A stretch of 64,000 bases of DNA from Candidatus Latescibacterota bacterium (GCA_965243025.1 CBDETY010000003.1:6400001-6464000); one strand, 5' to 3'. Counted from the first letter of the stretch, positions 19,885-47,000 are shown. A program made the numbers and translations. The notes: generated by a model from the sequence alone, not told the origin.

Positions 19885-21783
19885 TCAGAAATAGACCTGC
19901 ACGCCCCTGGCTTCCAGGGTTGGAATCTGCCGCTCTCTCGCCTTCTCACTGAGAGGGTTGCCCCTTACAGTCACCCAATTCCCACTGCCGAAATCCGTGT
20001 TGGCCACCAGGGCGGACAGATCCTCGATCTGGTTGTCATCCAGCCGTACGCCTTCCAGGCCGGGCAGCGACGCCAGGGGATCGATATCCGTAATCCGGTT
20101 TCCTTCCAGTTTCAGGTAGATCAGTTCGGTCATTTTCCCCAGGGGGCTCAGATCGGCTATCCGGTTGTTGGACAGGGACAGGTCTGCCAGGGCAGTCAAT
20201 CCGGCGAGTGGGCCAATTTCCACGATTTCGTTGTCCGCGAGATTCAATACTCTCATGAGAGTCAGGTTGGCCAGGGGGTCCAGGTCGGCTATTCCGTTAG
20301 CGGACAAATGGAGAAACCGCAGGTTGCTCATTCGGGTCAGTATGCTGAGATCGGTCAACCCCGTGGCCTCCAGGAGCAGACGTTCCAGACCGGTCAGTCC
20401 GGCCAGCGGGGACCAATCCTCTATCCGCCGGTTGTAGGTAAGCCATAGTTCCCTGAGAGCGGTCATTTCAGCCAACGGGCCCAGATCGGCAATTGGATTC
20501 GCCCCTATCAACAACCGTCTCAGGCTGGTCAATCGAGCCAGCGGAGCCGTATCTGCTATCCGGTTGTTGAACAGATTCAGGTCTTCCAATCGGGCCAATC
20601 CGGTCAGTGGGGTCAGATCCGACACCCGGTTGTAGGGCAGCTGCAGGTCTTTCAGGTTGGTCAACTCCCCCAGGGGGCTGACATCGACTATCTGGTTGAC
20701 GGACAGGTTCAGCCTGGCCAGGCTCGTCATCTTCCCCAGGGGCTCGACATCGACTATCCGGTTGTTGGAGAGTTGAAGCTCTCCCAGGGAGGTCAATGCC
20801 ACCAGCGGGCTGACATCGGCAATCTGGTTTCCGGACAGGAACAGCGTCTCCAGGTTGGTCAAATGCACCAGGGGGTTCACGTCGACTATCTCGTTTTCCA
20901 CCACCCACAGGAATTCCAGACCGGTCAGTTGCCAGATCCCGGCCAGACTGTGAATGCCCATCGCCCCGATCACGAGCCTGGTCAGCGAGGCGGCTCTACG
21001 GTGCGAGAAATCGGAGCTCGGCGATCCCCCCAGGGCTTTCGCTACCGCTTCCCGCAGGGCCTGGTCCTCGAAGAGCAGGATATCGAAAGGAAGAAAGAGG
21101 ACCGTCCCTTCCGGCAGGCCCATCCCGCCTTGCAGCAGGCGCACCTGCACGGTCGGCGAGATATCCCCTTGCCGATGGGTATCCTGCAGGTAGGCCACCA
21201 GCTTGCCCAACGAATTCGGCTCCTCCAGCACCACCGCCAGGTTGACGTCGGCACTGAGTTCGAGCCCCACTATCCCGGTTCGCTCCCCCCAGCGCTGGCT
21301 GAGGAAGGTCCCCACGGCCTCCCAACCCGTAAGGCTGGTCTCCTCCGTACCCAATACGGCCTCGGCACTCGAATCGACTCGCCAGTCGATGGGGACCAGG
21401 CCCGGTGGCAGGTCGCCGGGCTCGGCGGCCTTCAGCCTCAGATGCAGGGGGTCACCCGCGGGGCGGGTCCACACCAGGGTCTTCCGGACCACTCCGTCCG
21501 GGTCGGCACAGCGAATTGACACCAGGCTGTCCCGCCGGCCCCGGTATTCGACATGAAGCCCGGGCAGCGGCCTTTCGGCTTCATCGAGCAGGTGCAGCCA
21601 CAGGCCGCGAGGATACTCCGGCGACTCGACCATCACCCGGCCGTCGCCATCGCTTTGCCCCAACGCCCGGCCGCTGCGGTCGACCCCGACGGCATGGAAC
21701 AGTTCGGTCTCCGCCGTCGCCGCCGCAGCCCATGCAGTCGCCAAAGTCAGGAGTACTCTTGCTTGCACCATTACCGGATACAT
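19885..21783 (-). CDS. Secreted internalin-like leucine-rich repeat protein
   Basis: Signal peptide (..VLLTLATAWAAAATA); about 15 LRRs of 22 aa (L..L.L..N.I.D..PL); cap GNPLS...IPTLEARGVQV. Confidence 0.9.
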   Translation of the reverse strand: MYPVMVQARVLLTLATAWAAAATAETELFHAVGVDRSGRALGQSDGDGRVMVESPEYPRGLWLHLLDEAERPLPGLHVEYRGRRDSLVSIRCADPDGVVRKTLVWTRPAGDPLHLRLKAAEPGDLPPGLVPIDWRVDSSAEAVLGTEETSLTGWEAVGTFLSQRWGERTGIVGLELSADVNLAVVLEEPNSLGKLVAYLQDTHRQGDISPTVQVRLLQGGMGLPEGTVLFLPFDILLFEDQALREAVAKALGGSPSSDFSHRRAASLTRLVIGAMGIHSLAGIWQLTGLEFLWVVENEIVDVNPLVHLTNLETLFLSGNQIADVSPLVALTSLGELQLSNNRIVDVEPLGKMTSLARLNLSVNQIVDVSPLGELTNLKDLQLPYNRVSDLTPLTGLARLEDLNLFNNRIADTAPLARLTSLRRLLIGANPIADLGPLAEMTALRELWLTYNRRIEDWSPLAGLTGLERLLLEATGLTDLSILTRMSNLRFLHLSANGIADLDPLANLTLMRVLNLADNEIVEIGPLAGLTALADLSLSNNRIADLSPLGKMTELIYLKLEGNRITDIDPLASLPGLEGVRLDDNQIEDLSALVANTDFGSGNWVTVRGNPLSEKARERQIPTLEARGVQVYF

Positions 21784-21901
21784 GAAGGATCCGCCCGGCA
21801 TGTGGACCCCGGAAATCCGGGGCACCGCGGACCAGAATAGCCGGGGCCGGGGCGCTGCGCGCCAGGATCGGGCAGCAGCTCGGGGGCAGCGGGGAGCGGC
21901 T

Positions 21902-22753
21902 CTACTGAAAATCCTTGCCGGGAATCGTGCCCCAGGGGACCGCTTCCGCATCGCCCTCGTACACCGGCAGGTACGGTTCGGTGATGTGCCGCGTATGTTC
22001 GACCCAGTCAGCCCATTCGGACCTGCTGGTGATGTGATCGCGGATCAACGCCTTGACTTCGCCGGGCATGTCGTCGTAGGCGGGCCAGTACCAGAGAGTG
22101 AGCACTGTGCGCCGCTGGCCGGTTCGGTTGGCGCGGGCGGAATGCAGCAGGCGCGAATCGCCGATGACGACATCGCCGGCGCGAACGGGTACATCGACCT
22201 CACCCTCGACCTGTTGAAAAGCGAGATGATCCATGTCGGTTGCGTTGATCACGTCGTCGTCGTCCCTTGGCCGCATGTCGTGCAGGGGGTGGCGTTTCAG
22301 GTGGGAGCCGGGAATCAGACGCAGGCAGCCGTTGTGCAGGTTCGTGTCGACCAGATAGTACATCAGGAAGTACTGCTGCGGCTGGTTGGTGTAGCTGATC
22401 GGATGGTCCCACAACACGCCGTCGTGGTGCCAGTACAACGGCGGGCTTTGCGGAGGCTTGCTGATCACGAAACCGCTCCAGAATCTGGGGGAATCGAATC
22501 CCAGTTCCGCGAGAGCGGCTATCGCGCCGGGATAAATCAGGAGTTCGGTGAAGGTCGGGTGCGGGCAGGTCCAGTAGGGAATCAGGCAGCCCTGCGAGCG
22601 GTGCTGCTCGAAGTGCTCCTCGTCCTGTTGCGCGATCATCCATTCGCTCATGGCGTTCAGTTTCGCCACCATCTCCGGCGCCAGCACGTTCTCGAAGACG
22701 CAGAAGCCGTCGCGCATGAGTTGATCGCGTTTCTCCCTGGCGGCGATCGGCAT
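21902..22753 (-). CDS. PhyH-family dioxygenase
   Basis: RDGFCVFENVL, WHHD, NGCLRLIPGSH, AGDVVIGDSRLLHSA, RRTVLTLWY. Confidence 0.92.
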   Translation of the reverse strand: MPIAAREKRDQLMRDGFCVFENVLAPEMVAKLNAMSEWMIAQQDEEHFEQHRSQGCLIPYWTCPHPTFTELLIYPGAIAALAELGFDSPRFWSGFVISKPPQSPPLYWHHDGVLWDHPISYTNQPQQYFLMYYLVDTNLHNGCLRLIPGSHLKRHPLHDMRPRDDDDVINATDMDHLAFQQVEGEVDVPVRAGDVVIGDSRLLHSARANRTGQRRTVLTLWYWPAYDDMPGEVKALIRDHITSRSEWADWVEHTRHITEPYLPVYEGDAEAVPWGTIPGKDFQ

Positions 22754-22778
22754 GGGCTCCTTTCCGGTCAGCAGGTTC

Positions 22779-23516
22779 TCACGCCCTCCCGCCCGTCAGA
22801 ATCGACACCACCTGCGGGACGGCCTCTTCCACGCTTTCATCGAACTCGTCCCCTTCCACGGGCGCGGCGTGCGCGCCCAGTTCGATGTTCCTGTAGCCGG
22901 CAACGCCGTCGAAGGTACTCGACCAGGCGCCGGCACCGCCGGGCCTGATTCCGGCTTCCAGCTCCTTCCGGGGATACTCCCACCGCAGGTCCCTGCCGCC
23001 GTAGCGGACCCGGTCCCCCTCCGTCACGCCGCTCATCCTCATCCTGCGGTGCACCCCGAAGTGGATCAGCCTGCGATGCACTGCGTCGGACTGCGGGCCG
23101 GAGTCCTCCCAGCCCTCGACCAGGAAGTTCCCCGTTGCGTGCGACAGGCTGAACCCGTCGCCGTCGCGTGCGACCATCGGGACCCTTCCCGCGGCGGTGA
23201 TGTAGGCGGTCGGTACGCCTCTCAACTCGAACTCGAGCATGTCGTGCAAACTGCACGAACTGGCCCCGCATCAGTCGACGACCCCCATTACAAGCCCGTC
23301 GCACCGGGGAACGATCTCCTCGAGAAGCTTCTTCGAGCAGACGCGGTAGGGAGACGTCTTTTTCCACGGTCCGGCCACACTCGCGCCGTGCTCTGCCGCG
23401 AGCCGCTCCCCGACCGCTTCGAGGACGGCTCCCGCGGTGCGCTTTCCCGGGTCCAGAAGTCCGATCCTGGCACCGTTCAGGCGGGTCAGCCGGGATGCGG
23501 GTTCGATTCCTGGCAC
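22779..23516 (-). CDS. UGSC-family putative selenoprotein (UGA at 23271-23273 read as Sec; motif D-U-C-G-A-S-S-C-S-L-H-D)
   Basis: AAGGAG RBS + GTG 23516; ORFs 23271..23624 and 22779..23249 are in one frame separated only by TGA; family motifs ARIGLLD.GK, DGLVMGVVD*, SCSLHD..EFE.RGVPT flank it; SECIS-like hairpin follows. Confidence 0.82.
23241..23260 (-). promoter_or_regulatory. Putative bacterial SECIS element
   Basis: After UGA: G-(U bulge)-UCGUGCA-GUU-UGCACGA-C, a perfect 7-bp stem with a G-starting loop 19 nt after the UGA. Confidence 0.72.
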
Positions 23517-23536
23517 AGGTATGCTCCTTTCTGCTT

Positions 23537-23950
23537 TTACTCGGCTGTTCCCTCTCGGGTATCGTCCGAATTGTCGGCGTTTTCTTCGCGTTCTATGACT
23601 AAAGTATTGGATGGCTTGTAGCATGTCAGAAGGTACGAAACTTCATTTGGTTCATTCAGCCGAAAGGATTGCATGTCGTCATTACCGGAATCAGTAATAA
23701 TTTTGGACAAGGATTCTCCTTTTTGGTGCAATACAACCATCGCCCCAAGGCAGTCGGAGTATCCGACTTTCCTGATTCTCCTGAATACCGGAAGGTCGAC
23801 CTCGTCGTTGCGGCGAGTTTTTATCATCGTCGAATCACTTGAAACTTCATGACGAATATAACGAGCGGTTACTGCAGCTTCCTCGTGGTCATCATTCGAT
23901 GAGCAACCGGAAGAAATCACGGCAACCACGCACAGTAATTTCCATGACAT
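23537..23950 (-). CDS. Hypothetical lipoprotein, lower GC
   Basis: MSWKLLCVVAVISSGC lipobox-like; AAGGAG RBS; visibly more AT-rich than flanks. Confidence 0.7.
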   Translation of the reverse strand: MSWKLLCVVAVISSGCSSNDDHEEAAVTARYIRHEVSSDSTMIKTRRNDEVDLPVFRRIRKVGYSDCLGAMVVLHQKGESLSKIITDSGNDDMQSFRLNEPNEVSYLLTCYKPSNTLVIEREENADNSDDTREGTAE

Positions 23951-24317
23951 TTATATCTTCTCCTTATGGGACTGGTTTAATCAGAGAAGCATACTTCTTC
24001 TACAAAGGGACGCGAGAGTACCGATCCCGTCCTCCCGCCAATCCCGATTCTAACGGGGACAGCAATCCCCTGTCAACACCCTGCTTCGGGAGCCGGGCCT
24101 CGCCCTGGGTGTCAGTGAGGCAATTGTTGCATGGTTTTCAATCCTGGTATTTTTCGTGAGATTACCGGAGAATCAAAGGACGCAGGCTTCCGCAGGGGGA
24201 GCAACGCTTCGCTGGAGCAAGGGGCGCCAGGCGGCCGCCAGCGAAGGCGGTTTCGAGGGTATCCAGCGCCAGGCAGGGGTTTACTGAGACGATGGCAGTC
24301 CTTCCGGAAGAGTCGCG

Positions 24318-26568: not shown

Positions 26569-28214
26569 TCACCGCCATTCGTCGACGGACGCGGTGGCCG
26601 CGTGGGGGGCGCCGAAGATGCGCCAGTACCCGTTGGTTTCGCCTCCGACGACGACGACCTGGATCTGGTCCTTCGGCCAGATGCGGATGAGCTCCTCCTC
26701 TTCCGCTTCCAGCATCGCCGCCCAGGGCTCCTCGCCGACGAGCGCCCTCGGCTCGACGTAGTTCTCGATCAGCTGGTAATCCCAGTAGACCCCGGCGCGC
26801 ATGGTGCCGTTCTCGTGGACCCAGTCGACGAGCTGTTCGACGGTGTGGAAACCGCCGCGGTCGACGAACTGGCGGGCGGTGATCGGGTCGAGGACGAAAG
26901 TGGGCGCCTCGTGCGGGTCCATGCCCCGCAGCATCTGGATGACGTGAGTCTGCCAGTGCTTTTCGCGCAGCCCGAGAGTGAAGGCGGTGGAGCGGCAGCC
27001 CGGGAAAACGCTGACGGTGCTGTCTCCTTTGGCGAAGCCCTTCCGGACGTGGAAGGGATCCCACGGACTGCGCTCTTCGTTCTCGGCGTAGCAGATGCTG
27101 CTGAAGGCGTAGCCGTTGCCCTGCGAGCCGAGGTAGGTGTGCAGCGGCAGCGAACCACCCTGGCCGTTCTGGGACAGCAGGCCGTAGGCGCGCCCGATGG
27201 TGGCGTTGGCGTGGTTGTAGGGTCCCATGGCGCCGACGCCGGAGTTCATGCCGATCTCTTCGCGGAAGGGCCCGTTGACGACCGCCATGGCCGCGGCCGA
27301 GCTGGTCGTGCTCGGGCGCGCCGTGACCTGCGTCGATGCCAGCGCGAGAATGGCGGGAAAGTATTCCGGCCGCGCCCCGGCCATGACGGCGTTGACGGCG
27401 ACCTTCTCCACCGTGTACTCCCAGGCCTCGCGCGGGCCCGTGGGCCGCATCTGTCCGACTGTTTCATCCGGGTCCCGGCTCGTGCCCCTGAGCATCGCCT
27501 CGACGCGGGCCTCGGTCGGCAGCACGATCGGCAGCTTGTCGGTCCAGTTCTCGCGCAGGAAGAGCTCGTGGAGGTTGTCCTCCGAGTCCGGCTCGCACAG
27601 CCGCGGGGTGGAGCGGTCGAAGCTGACGACCTCCGTCTCCCCGGCGCTGAGCGGGCGGGTCAGGGCCTCCATCACCTCGGTCATGAACGGACGCCCGGTG
27701 ACGGGATCGGCGCCGTCGACGTAAGCCCGCAGCTCGGCCGGCGACTTGCCCATCACCGGCTGGGGGACGAAGACGAACCGCTGCTTCGGCATGCCCCGCG
27801 CCAGGCCTGGGCCCGCGCCAGGGGTTCGAAGATGTCGGTCTGGACGGAGGCTGTCGGCACTCCGTACTCGGTTTCAACTGTGATGCACTGGTCGGCGACC
27901 GCCGGCGCGCACGTGCTTCAGTGGCCGACGCCGATGACGGCGGCATCTCCCTGCTGTCTGATCTCCTCGTAGAGCGCCTCGTCGCGGGTGGTGTAGACGT
28001 TCGACTTGCGGCGCACCTCCACGTTGATCCCCGGGCGGTGCTCGCCGAACCAGTTACCCATCTGGCGCATGAGGATGTCGCCGTCGTCGAAACGGCAGTC
28101 GACGAGGTAGACGGTGCGGCCTTCGAGCGAATCGGGACGAGGGGCCATGCCCAGTTGCTCCCTCTTCGGCGGGTGCCCCATCGGGTTGAGGACGGTGATC
28201 CTGTTGTCGCCCAT
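26569..28214 (-). CDS. UGSC-family putative selenoprotein (U-S-T-C) fused to a ~370 aa WTDxLPIVxPT domain; one -1 frameshift near 27805
   Basis: 27918..28214 ends ..AAVIGVGH-TGA and continues in frame STCAPAVADQCITVETEYGVPT..FEPLARAQA; restoring one C gives LARGMPKQRFVFVPQPV, joining ORF 26569..27792. Confidence 0.8.
27885..27916 (-). promoter_or_regulatory. Putative bacterial SECIS element
   Basis: After UGA: lower stem GCAC/GUGC and upper stem CGGC-GGUC-GCCG; GGUC loop 17 nt after the UGA, like the E. coli fdhF SECIS loop. Confidence 0.68.
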
Positions 28215-28349: not shown

Positions 28350-28442
28350 GTGCCGGCACCGGAGATGGTAGAGAAGTTGAACGCCATGAGCGAATGGATG
28401 ATCGCGCAGCAGGAGGAGGAACACTTCGAGCAGCACCGTTCA
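28350..28442 (+). pseudogene. 93-bp fragment of a PhyH dioxygenase gene, inverted relative to 22595-22687
   Basis: VPAPEMVEKLNAMSEWMIAQQEEEHFEQHRS vs VLAPEMVAKLNAMSEWMIAQQDEEHFEQHRS; most differences at third codon positions. Confidence 0.85.
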
Positions 28443-46262: not shown

Positions 46263-47000
46263 ATGCTGACTGACGAACAGATGCGGCAGTTTAGAGAAGA
46301 TGGCTATCTCGTTTTTGCAGCCCTGATACAAGGCGAGCGATTGGCCTACTACAAGCAGGTGTTTGATGAATTGGTCGCAGAGGGGTGCAAATTGACCGAG
46401 GAGGCACCACACTGGACGCTCGAGTTGGACGAGCGCGGTGAACCCCGGGCGGGTTTGTTGCACAAAATTCAGGGGGTTTGCGTGGTCGATGCCCGCGTGT
46501 TGGAACTGGCGCGTGAACCGGCGATTTTAGACCGCGTGGCTGTATTGATCGGTGAAAATGTCGATGTGTTTGGCACCAAGTTTTTTCCGAAGTTGCCCAA
46601 TGGCGGCACTTCAACGGGCTGGCACCAGGACAATTTTTATTTTGGCACCGATACGGATCGCATTATCAGTTGCGGGATTTATCTTGAAGATTCAGATGTG
46701 GAGAATGGGTGTTTGCGGGTGGTGCCTGGCAGTCACCGGATGGGCGAGATTGTCGAGCACCGCCCAAATCCAAGCAGCCATGGCAGTTGGACACAGGTCG
46801 ATGAATCGCGGGCTGTGGATCTGGTTATTCCCGCTGGTACGGTTGTTTTGTTTTCCGCCAATCTGCTGCACGGCTCTTATGATAACCACAGCAATCGCAC
46901 GCGCTATAGTACGGCATGGCATTATCTGCCCGAAGAACTCAATTCAGAAAAGTTTCCAAAGGGCATTTACGAAGATCGACATGTGGCGTGTAAGCATTGA
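46263..47000 (+). CDS. PhyH-family dioxygenase (lower GC)
   Basis: LTDEQMRQFREDGY, WHQD, ENGCLRVVPGSH, AGTVVLFSANLLHGS.DN.S.R.R; AGGAGG RBS. Confidence 0.93.
   Translation: MLTDEQMRQFREDGYLVFAALIQGERLAYYKQVFDELVAEGCKLTEEAPHWTLELDERGEPRAGLLHKIQGVCVVDARVLELAREPAILDRVAVLIGENVDVFGTKFFPKLPNGGTSTGWHQDNFYFGTDTDRIISCGIYLEDSDVENGCLRVVPGSHRMGEIVEHRPNPSSHGSWTQVDESRAVDLVIPAGTVVLFSANLLHGSYDNHSNRTRYSTAWHYLPEELNSEKFPKGIYEDRHVACKH

Follow-up and report, generated by a model that had tools for sequence, protein, structure and literature searches.

We have identified, in a 64,000-nucleotide stretch of DNA from a Candidatus Latescibacterota bacterium (GCA_965243025.1, CBDETY010000003.1:6400001-6464000; the whole stretch is hereafter called the window), a minus-strand gene at 23516-22779 that is very probably a single coding unit in which one internal TGA is decoded as selenocysteine (Sec). 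Its predicted product is, by sequence comparison, a divergent offshoot of the UGSC family within a rare, unnamed subfamily, and it carries an inserted domain that resembles the C-terminal domain of the GTP-binding protein Obg (the Obg-C-terminal or OCT domain). We regard a selenoprotein as very probable because the TGA and the Cys codon behind it are conserved, the gene is under purifying selection, homologues carry Cys at the TGA column, a hairpin of the selenocysteine insertion sequence (SECIS) type follows the TGA and the Sec machinery is encoded in the same genome. The whole account, that is, a Sec-decoded UGSC offshoot with an OCT-like insertion and the redox mechanism proposed below, is likely to be correct.

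The UGSC-containing protein is a functionally uncharacterised selenoprotein with a UxxC motif (entered as 'UGSC' in Table 1 of PMC13188914) whose family ranks among the most abundant selenoproteins of the environment and has no known function (PMC2398784; PMC13188914). The offshoot differs from it in two things at once: the redox motif has gone from U-x-x-C to U-C...C, and an OCT-like domain has been gained while no partner gene lies nearby. This double change amounts to a natural experiment on the requirements of a Sec centre. It also exposes a systematic annotation gap, in that every database entry of the clade is a fragment ending or starting at the UGA; the NCBIfam model NF041046 would not rescue the gene, since its score falls below the cut-off.

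A preliminary description of this DNA had taken two open reading frames (ORFs) for one frame split by a single TGA, preceded by a ribosome-binding site and a GTG start at 23516. Reading of the frame bears this out, and both signals are present (AAGGAG at 23529-23524, GTG at 23516-23514; Table 1). The read-through peptide around Sec82 is ...LVMGVVD-U-C-G-A-S-S-C-S-L-H-D-MLEFELRGVPTA..., and at 11 loci the orthologues have GTG or ATG at the same start codon. An assembly error at the TGA, a point that the preliminary description had wanted checked, was considered and rejected: independent assemblies agree with the window at 24 of 24 orthologous places, and public sequencing runs from two studies, three runs in all (X1, X4 and X7, of which X1 and X4 may be the source sample), yield contigs that are letter-identical to the window across the TGA site. 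A contig of a further run, X5, spans 23025-23466 with three differences from the window, one of them placed, at 23419. Reassignment of TGA was rejected as well, since TGA also serves as the stop codon of the gene itself and of 10 of the 11 orthologues.

Table 1. Positions of the selenoprotein gene, its elements and the adjoining features in the window
Feature	Position	Strand	Basis
PhyH-family Fe(II)/2-oxoglutarate (2OG) dioxygenase	21902..22753	(-)	PF05721, 89.8 bits; ATG at 22753, 25 nt 3' of the selenoprotein gene
UGSC-related selenoprotein gene, one gene of 245 codons	22779..23516	(-)	Read-through of the frame, GTG start, terminal TGA at 22781-22779
Inserted OCT-like domain, residues ~109-215	22872..23192	(-)	Sub-threshold family matches, profile, Foldseek
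SECIS-like hairpin UCGUGCA-GUU-UGCACGA	23242..23258	(-)	7-bp stem, GUU loop
TGC, Cys88, +6 from Sec; alternative resolving or ligand Cys	23253..23255	(-)	Translation of the frame
TGC, Cys83, +1 from Sec (U-C dyad)	23268..23270	(-)	Directly 3' of the TGA
In-frame TGA, codon 82, read as Sec	23271..23273	(-)	Sole internal TGA of the frame
Shine-Dalgarno-like AAGGAG	23524..23529	(-)	7 nt 5' of the GTG at 23516-23514
137-residue lipobox-bearing ORF (...ISSGC)	23537..23950	(-)	20 nt 5' of the selenoprotein gene
Sigma-70-like promoter match TTGACA-18-TAGAAT	24047..24076	(-)	Consensus match only; upstream of three genes

The TGA and its neighbouring Cys codon are conserved across the phylum. A scan of species-representative genomes gave 11 loci, 81-91% identical, all of which have TGA followed by a Cys codon at the same place, and of 168 phylum genomes searched in six frames, 22 have an orthologue, the window genome included (6 genomes in the window's family, 15/22 in a second family and 1/2 in a third). 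These two collections overlap, and genome counts are taken from the 168-genome search only. Exactly one TGA, at codon 82, occurs in all 24 orthologous places covering that codon in the 22 genomes, and Cys-form homologues have Cys at this column, which is the pattern that the preliminary description's proposal of a hidden UGSC-related selenoprotein predicts; together with the sel genes described below, it makes that proposal very probable. In a pattern scan the motif VVDUCGASSCSLHD (once MVD...) was found in 33 of 34 loci. The 34th (L052; 58% identity, at a contig edge) reads VDUCGSSSCSLRD, and a 67%-identical paralogue keeps the U-C dyad too. Residue 83 is Cys in 33/33 loci, encoded by TGC in 30 and by TGT in three, and this synonymous variation indicates that the amino acid is what is kept; Cys83 and Cys88 are both invariant within the Sec clade. 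Across five pairwise comparisons the nonsynonymous rate (dN) was 0.03-0.08 against a synonymous rate (dS) of 0.15-0.68, 5' and 3' of the TGA alike, and by this measure both halves of the gene are under purifying selection in one frame.

The hairpin begins 12 nt after the TGA, with its loop 19 nt after it. The rules published for bacterial SECIS elements call for a loop of 3-9 nt with G in the first two loop positions, a stem of 4-16 bp, a UGA-to-loop spacing of 16-37 nt and a minimum free energy of -7.5 or lower (PMC13188914, legend of Fig. 2). With a 3-nt loop (G, then U), a 7-bp stem, a 19-nt spacing and -8.2 kcal/mol when folded alone, the hairpin satisfies all of them, and 2 of 200 shuffles fold equally well. 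The preliminary description, which had suggested a bacterial SECIS search, was right about a perfect hairpin; the bulged U that it placed below the stem is absent from the minimum-free-energy folds. Among 33 loci, 32 share the hairpin 17-mer letter for letter and the paralogue L061 has a U>C change in the loop (GUC); in L052 an A>G change turns a U-A pair into U-G with pairing retained. Around the hairpin most relatives add a lower stem of 5 bp, CCAGU/GCUGG, which is weaker in the window. Several observations weigh against a structural reading of this conservation. The hairpin encodes the invariant peptide SSCSLHD, which confounds its own invariance; codons 15-21 form a stretch of the same length that likewise shows no synonymous change; and no doubly compensated base pair was seen among the hairpin loci compared. 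Longer folds are no better than shuffles (26/200 for 39 nt, 52/200 for 76 nt), and an Rfam scan of 22500-24000 (E<=10) returned three chance-level matches, none at the hairpin. Because of the first three of these points, conservation of the hairpin supports a structure but falls short of proof.

The machinery that would decode the UGA is encoded in the same genome. Searches for selA, selB, selC and selD, which the preliminary description had proposed, found selA (534 bits), selB (320 bits) and selD (362 bits), all above curated cut-offs, and a tRNA-Sec with anticodon tca. The selD gene (G000:C3:31883-32806) contains one in-frame TGA itself, and SelD would therefore also be a selenoprotein here.

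These results bear directly on the simplest alternative, that the TGA is a true stop and that the region holds a pseudogene or two separate small genes of 81 and 156 residues. Such an explanation is in keeping with public gene calls and with the database, where all 32 near-length matches are fragments (none crosses the TGA column, the pieces in the protein collection measuring 138-196 residues), and a TTG at 23249 could open the second ORF. The absence of any full-length clade protein from the collection is, in our view, a sign that public gene callers stop at the TGA. We consider a true stop barely credible: the TGA stands in 24/24 places, selection is purifying 5' and 3' of it in one and the same frame, the Cys-form homologues are single chains of 212-254 residues, the Sec machinery is present, and the second ORF would begin midway through helix 83-98, inside a fold that is predicted with confidence as one unit.

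The distribution of the gene suggests recent horizontal spread. It is 84-91% identical between families of the phylum whose SelA proteins share 49-60%, no orthologue was found in the two genomes that share the window's genus by six-frame search with the window gene as query, and the flanks differ from genome to genome, all of which would fit such a history. Additional copies were seen in two relatives. One (G058) has three full copies of the selenoprotein gene, and another (G059) has extra partial copies of the C-terminal part, at G059:C1:955455-955736 (L062; residues 152-245, 84% identity) and G059:C1:2294901-2295098 (residues 176-242, 64% identity).

Membership in the UGSC family is indicated by Pfam PF24696 (UGSC), which gives 88.2 bits against a gathering threshold of 25 and aligns residues 6-108 with profile positions 17-119 in two stretches. 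Sec82 occupies the invariant Cys/Sec column of the family, behind the beta-strand ...G-x-x-D, both in the alignment columns and in the structural model. Speaking against plain membership, the NCBIfam equivalog NF041046 is not passed (62.3 bits, cut-off 125); the subfamily relatives P0034 (66.5) and P0040 (62.8) are likewise under its cut-off. The UGSC motif, with Cys at +3, is missing from the window protein, which reads U-C-G-A.

An exhaustive HMMER search of 1.84 billion representatives yielded 173 matches at E<=0.001, and 54 representatives were aligned, comprising 34 canonical sequences and 20 with an insertion of ~95 residues, of which 12 include the motif column. The single-chain relatives of 212-254 residues have Cys at the Sec column, as do 12/12 insertion-type and 33/34 canonical representatives, counts in which two Sec sequences are stored with C. 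The canonical sequences follow the pattern D-C-G-S-C-[ST]-[ST]-[WC]...D, with G in 31 and C in none at +1, C in 31 at +3, W in 16 and C in eight at +6, and D in 31 at +10; the consensus given in the preliminary description, D-U-G-S-C-x-S-C/W-x-x-H-D, matches these counts, and the window protein keeps the +10 D. Among the 12 insertion-type sequences the corresponding counts are C 3, G 4 and A 3 at +1, C in one at +3 and C in eight at +6, while a Cys at -10 is found in six of them and in 22 of the 34 canonical ones. As judged from this alignment, the insertion-type subfamily as a whole has lost the CxxC-type +3 Cys, and a Cys at +6 is usual in it. The preliminary description's view that the resolving Cys had moved from +3 to +1 is therefore not established. 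As to whether homologues keep the +1 Cys, it is present in 33/33 loci of the Sec clade and in P0034 and is absent from the other insertion-type and from all 34 canonical sequences, so that among the 12 insertion-type sequences it occurs only in the Sec clade (P0001, P0182) and P0034.

P0034 is the closest full-length relative, a Cys form of 46% identity that reads D-C-C-A-C-S-A-C-C. A maximum-likelihood tree of 22 rows (fragments omitted, so that 10 of the 12 insertion-type sequences enter, together with the canonical sequences 1-12 of 34) sets the insertion type apart from the canonical sequences by a branch with support 100/99 and places P0001 and P0034 as sisters (94/92). In the sources the relatives go under 'hypothetical protein', with a single 'Obg family GTPase CgtA-like protein' among them, and they are mostly metagenome singleton clusters. 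An ESM Atlas search with P0034 returned UGSC clusters only. Fragments of the Sec-type subfamily exist outside the clade (P0045, P0047, P0055-57, P0078, P0081), and metagenome-contig scans with the single proteins P0045 and P0055 found no relative. Main-text passages on UGSC reached through a full-text literature search, together with Table 1 of PMC13188914, describe neither a subfamily with an OCT domain nor a UGSC protein with a U-C dyad; a UGSC/Unknown_1 fusion is the subject of Figure S1 in PMC2398784.

The long insertion after RGVPT that the preliminary description had noted is real: relative to the 34 canonical representatives, ~95 residues are added after RGVPTA, behind the fourth strand and before the last helix. 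Sub-threshold family matches, a profile match and a Foldseek match together identify it as an OCT-like domain. DUF1967 (PF09269) and TIGR03595 match the same ~35 residues in P0001, P0034, P0040 and P0049, with PF09269 scores of 14.1, 19.5, 26.8 and 23.3, respectively, none of which passes the gathering threshold of 27; P0039 has no PF09269 match. The subfamily profile aligns with residues 344-411 of the GTP-binding protein Obg in PDB 1udx_A (E 1.1e-5). Modelled alone, the insertion has a predicted local distance difference test score (pLDDT) of 80.7, and 1udx is again the top Foldseek match (E 0.015, probability 1.00, TMq 0.48, 85 columns, root mean square deviation (rmsd) 4.3), the next having E 1.0. 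Because TMq is only 0.48, the predicted fold taken alone is modest evidence for OCT likeness. PF09269 gave no match at E<=0.001 in the window genome or in the 12 relatives searched, and the insertion was thus not copied recently from the host's Obg. A search of the literature for what OCT domains do brought no usable lead.

Modelled at full length across the TGA, the protein is a single compact structure (pLDDT 93.9; predicted template modelling score, pTM, 0.90). A strand at 74-80 leads into helix 83-98, with Sec82 as predicted helix N-cap, Cys83 as the first helical residue and Cys88 one and a half turns into the helix. With its three alpha/beta layers and its flavodoxin-like and Rossmann-like matches, the core is of a generic kind, which detracts from any specific reading of the fold: the best VIA-align match, 8s7v_H, has Z 11.3 and rmsd 3.2 over 130 aligned residues, many others lie at Z 8-10, and a Foldseek search of the PDB with the whole model gave nothing at E<=0.001. 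Such generic matches provide no functional lead.

It is hypothesized that the genome's own SelA, SelB, SelD and tRNA-Sec would decode UGA-82 as Sec, with the hairpin recruiting SelB. Sec82, which stands at a helix N-terminus after a strand and in an invariant Cys/Sec column, and hence in the position of a reactive selenol, would attack the substrate; a nearby Cys would then capture it as a selenenylsulfide, and an external thiol system would reduce this bond and close the cycle. The OCT-like domain probably takes over recognition of a partner or substrate, since the subfamily lacks the adjacent partner of ~400 residues that accompanies canonical UGSC proteins; by tblastn, the 407-residue partner of a second UGSC gene in the window (described below) was found at 0 of 11 loci within 6-kb flanks.

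For the residue that partners Sec82, we tentatively favour Cys83 on geometric grounds, as the adjacent residue at the predicted helix N-terminus. Resolution by Cys88, in which case Cys83 would be a clade-specific extra such as a second shuttle thiol, is less favoured and appears rather unlikely. It would agree with the occurrence of a +6 Cys in eight of the 12 insertion-type sequences, compared with a +1 Cys in three, and Cys88 is as invariant in the Sec clade as Cys83; yet in the model Cys88 lies six residues into helix 83-98, where it is expected to be too distant for a direct bond without unwinding.

Another explanation dispenses with a resolving Cys: the U-C-x4-C cluster, possibly with Cys72, would be a set of ligands for a metal, a metalloid or an Fe-S centre, and the protein would bind or carry the metal or cluster. 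Table 1 of the 2026 review PMC13188914 enters bacterial selenoproteins with either dyad, among them a CopZ-like 2Fe-2S protein with 'GxUC' and several 'CU' families. These motifs belong largely to metal-related families, namely CopZ-like 2Fe-2S proteins ('GxUC' and 'CU'), the MerB-like SaoL, HgcA and MbdU, a metal-binding double selenoprotein. The dyad that the preliminary description had called unusual is real and conserved, but it is not without bacterial precedent. The sister Cys form P0034, with five Cys in eight residues (C-C-A-C-S-A-C-C), also tells in favour of metal and against the redox mechanism, and the -10 Cys is common in the family, at the frequencies given above. On the other hand, P0050, P0051, P0052 and P0043 have a single Cys at the site, so that a multi-Cys set is not a trait of the subfamily, and the canonical family motif is of the redox UxxC type at a helix N-terminus. 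A metal site is a serious rival, though on balance it seems unlikely, and a redox-active Sec82 with Cys83 as its candidate partner is retained as the working mechanism.

A link of the selenoprotein gene to neighbouring dioxygenase genes is a weak lead. The preliminary description had proposed an operon with a lipoprotein and a PhyH dioxygenase, and within the window the layout is as stated, with the lipobox ORF followed on one strand by the selenoprotein gene and then by PhyH, at spacings of 20 and 25 nt. The operon is a local one, however. The lipobox ORF has no Pfam or NCBIfam match and no homologue in 33 related loci, and at least 152 PhyH (PF05721) matches over the Pfam cut-off occur in the 6.8-Mb genome, as against none in 14 control genomes; with PhyH genes so numerous, adjacency to the selenoprotein gene carries little weight. 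Even so, orthologues elsewhere have PhyH neighbours that belong to three distinct paralogues. One of 245 residues lies divergently upstream in 8 of 11 loci (6-kb flanks) and in 11 of 20 loci (1.5-kb flanks); the window's 283-residue type lies downstream in L032 (an orthologous segment of 84%, same position), which has an upstream PhyH as well; and one of 289 residues lies upstream on the same strand in L024/L038. No PhyH was found at L023/L036, L025/L041, L040, L043, L048 and L061. A glyoxalase/VOC gene lies convergently downstream in L027, L023/L036, L034, L040 and L043, among the part of the loci scanned.

Several further features of the region were observed. An 88%-identical orthologue of the 245-residue PhyH gene that adjoins the selenoprotein gene divergently in other genomes is located in the window at 46263-46997 (+), 23 kb from the selenoprotein gene. 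The window's downstream PhyH gene has its end overlapped by 50 nt by a 688-residue leucine-rich-repeat ORF at 19885-21951 (-) (LRR_4, 195 bits). The lipobox ORF (47% G+C) and the promoter-like site fall within a low-G+C island at 23520-24100 (47-50% against ~65%), which is possibly recently acquired DNA.

A second UGSC selenoprotein gene, of canonical type, lies 4.3 kb from the U-C gene at 27757-28214 (-), with a TGA at 27920-27918, the motif G-H-U-S-T-C and a hairpin of its own. It is accompanied by a partner, overlapping the start of a 407-residue ORF at 26569-27792 (-) that has no Pfam or NCBIfam match and resembles the C-terminal parts of UGSC fusion proteins (P0145, 570 residues, 41%; P0149, 574 residues, 35%; NWTDKLP motif). 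In one contig of run X5 an additional base behind 27803 would bring both ORFs into a single frame, and X1, X4 and X7 have contigs that match the window, where the ORFs are split; apparently, then, one strain has the pair as a fusion and the window strain has it as two ORFs. Part of the 5' coding region of PhyH (about codons 23-53) recurs on the opposite strand immediately upstream of the second UGSC gene, forming a 92-nt inverted repeat (22596-22687 and 28350-28441, 89% complementary) that may be a rearrangement scar between the two UGSC loci.

A more far-reaching proposal, which we put forward as a speculation and consider improbable, is that the U-C dyad is a vicinal selenenylsulfide switch at the helix N-cap, that the OCT-like domain replaces the UGSC partner, and that the whole forms a self-contained selenium redox module, mobile by horizontal transfer, that serves the neighbouring dioxygenases of the non-haem-iron (PhyH) or VOC (glyoxalase family) type, for example as reductant or repair factor. 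If true, a vicinal selenenylsulfide at a helix N-cap would be a geometry not described for any selenoprotein.

Among known systems, the canonical UGSC family is the closest. The N-terminal alpha/beta core, the C-terminal helix, the Sec column and the +10 D are shared with it, whereas the window protein scores under the NF041046 cut-off, is without the +3 Cys, has a +1 Cys seen in 0/34 canonical sequences, and carries the ~95-residue OCT-like insertion with no partner gene nearby. The likeness to the OCT domain of Obg consists in the profile match to residues 344-411 and the top fold match to 1udx; in Obg, however, that domain stands at the end of a GTPase, and here it is set inside a redox-type domain. 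GrdB and PrdB, the selenoprotein B components of glycine reductase and D-proline reductase, have a UxxC motif and work with partner subunits (PMC13188914). They resemble the window protein in having a Sec-first redox motif in an alpha/beta protein that is not a thioredoxin, and differ in that the window protein has no PF07355 match (E<=1) and no adjoining proprotein or partner gene. The bacterial GxUC and CU families are mostly metal-related, and neither they nor thioredoxin reductase, the other vicinal Cys/Sec centre, has a sequence relationship to the window protein. An eight-membered selenenylsulfide ring forms in the Cys-Sec tail (C-terminal Gly-Cys-Sec-Gly) of animal thioredoxin reductase. 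There, as in the window protein, Sec and Cys are adjacent in the chain, but the order in thioredoxin reductase is C-U and the dyad lies in a flexible tail, whereas in the window protein it is U-C and is predicted to cap a helix within a globular domain.

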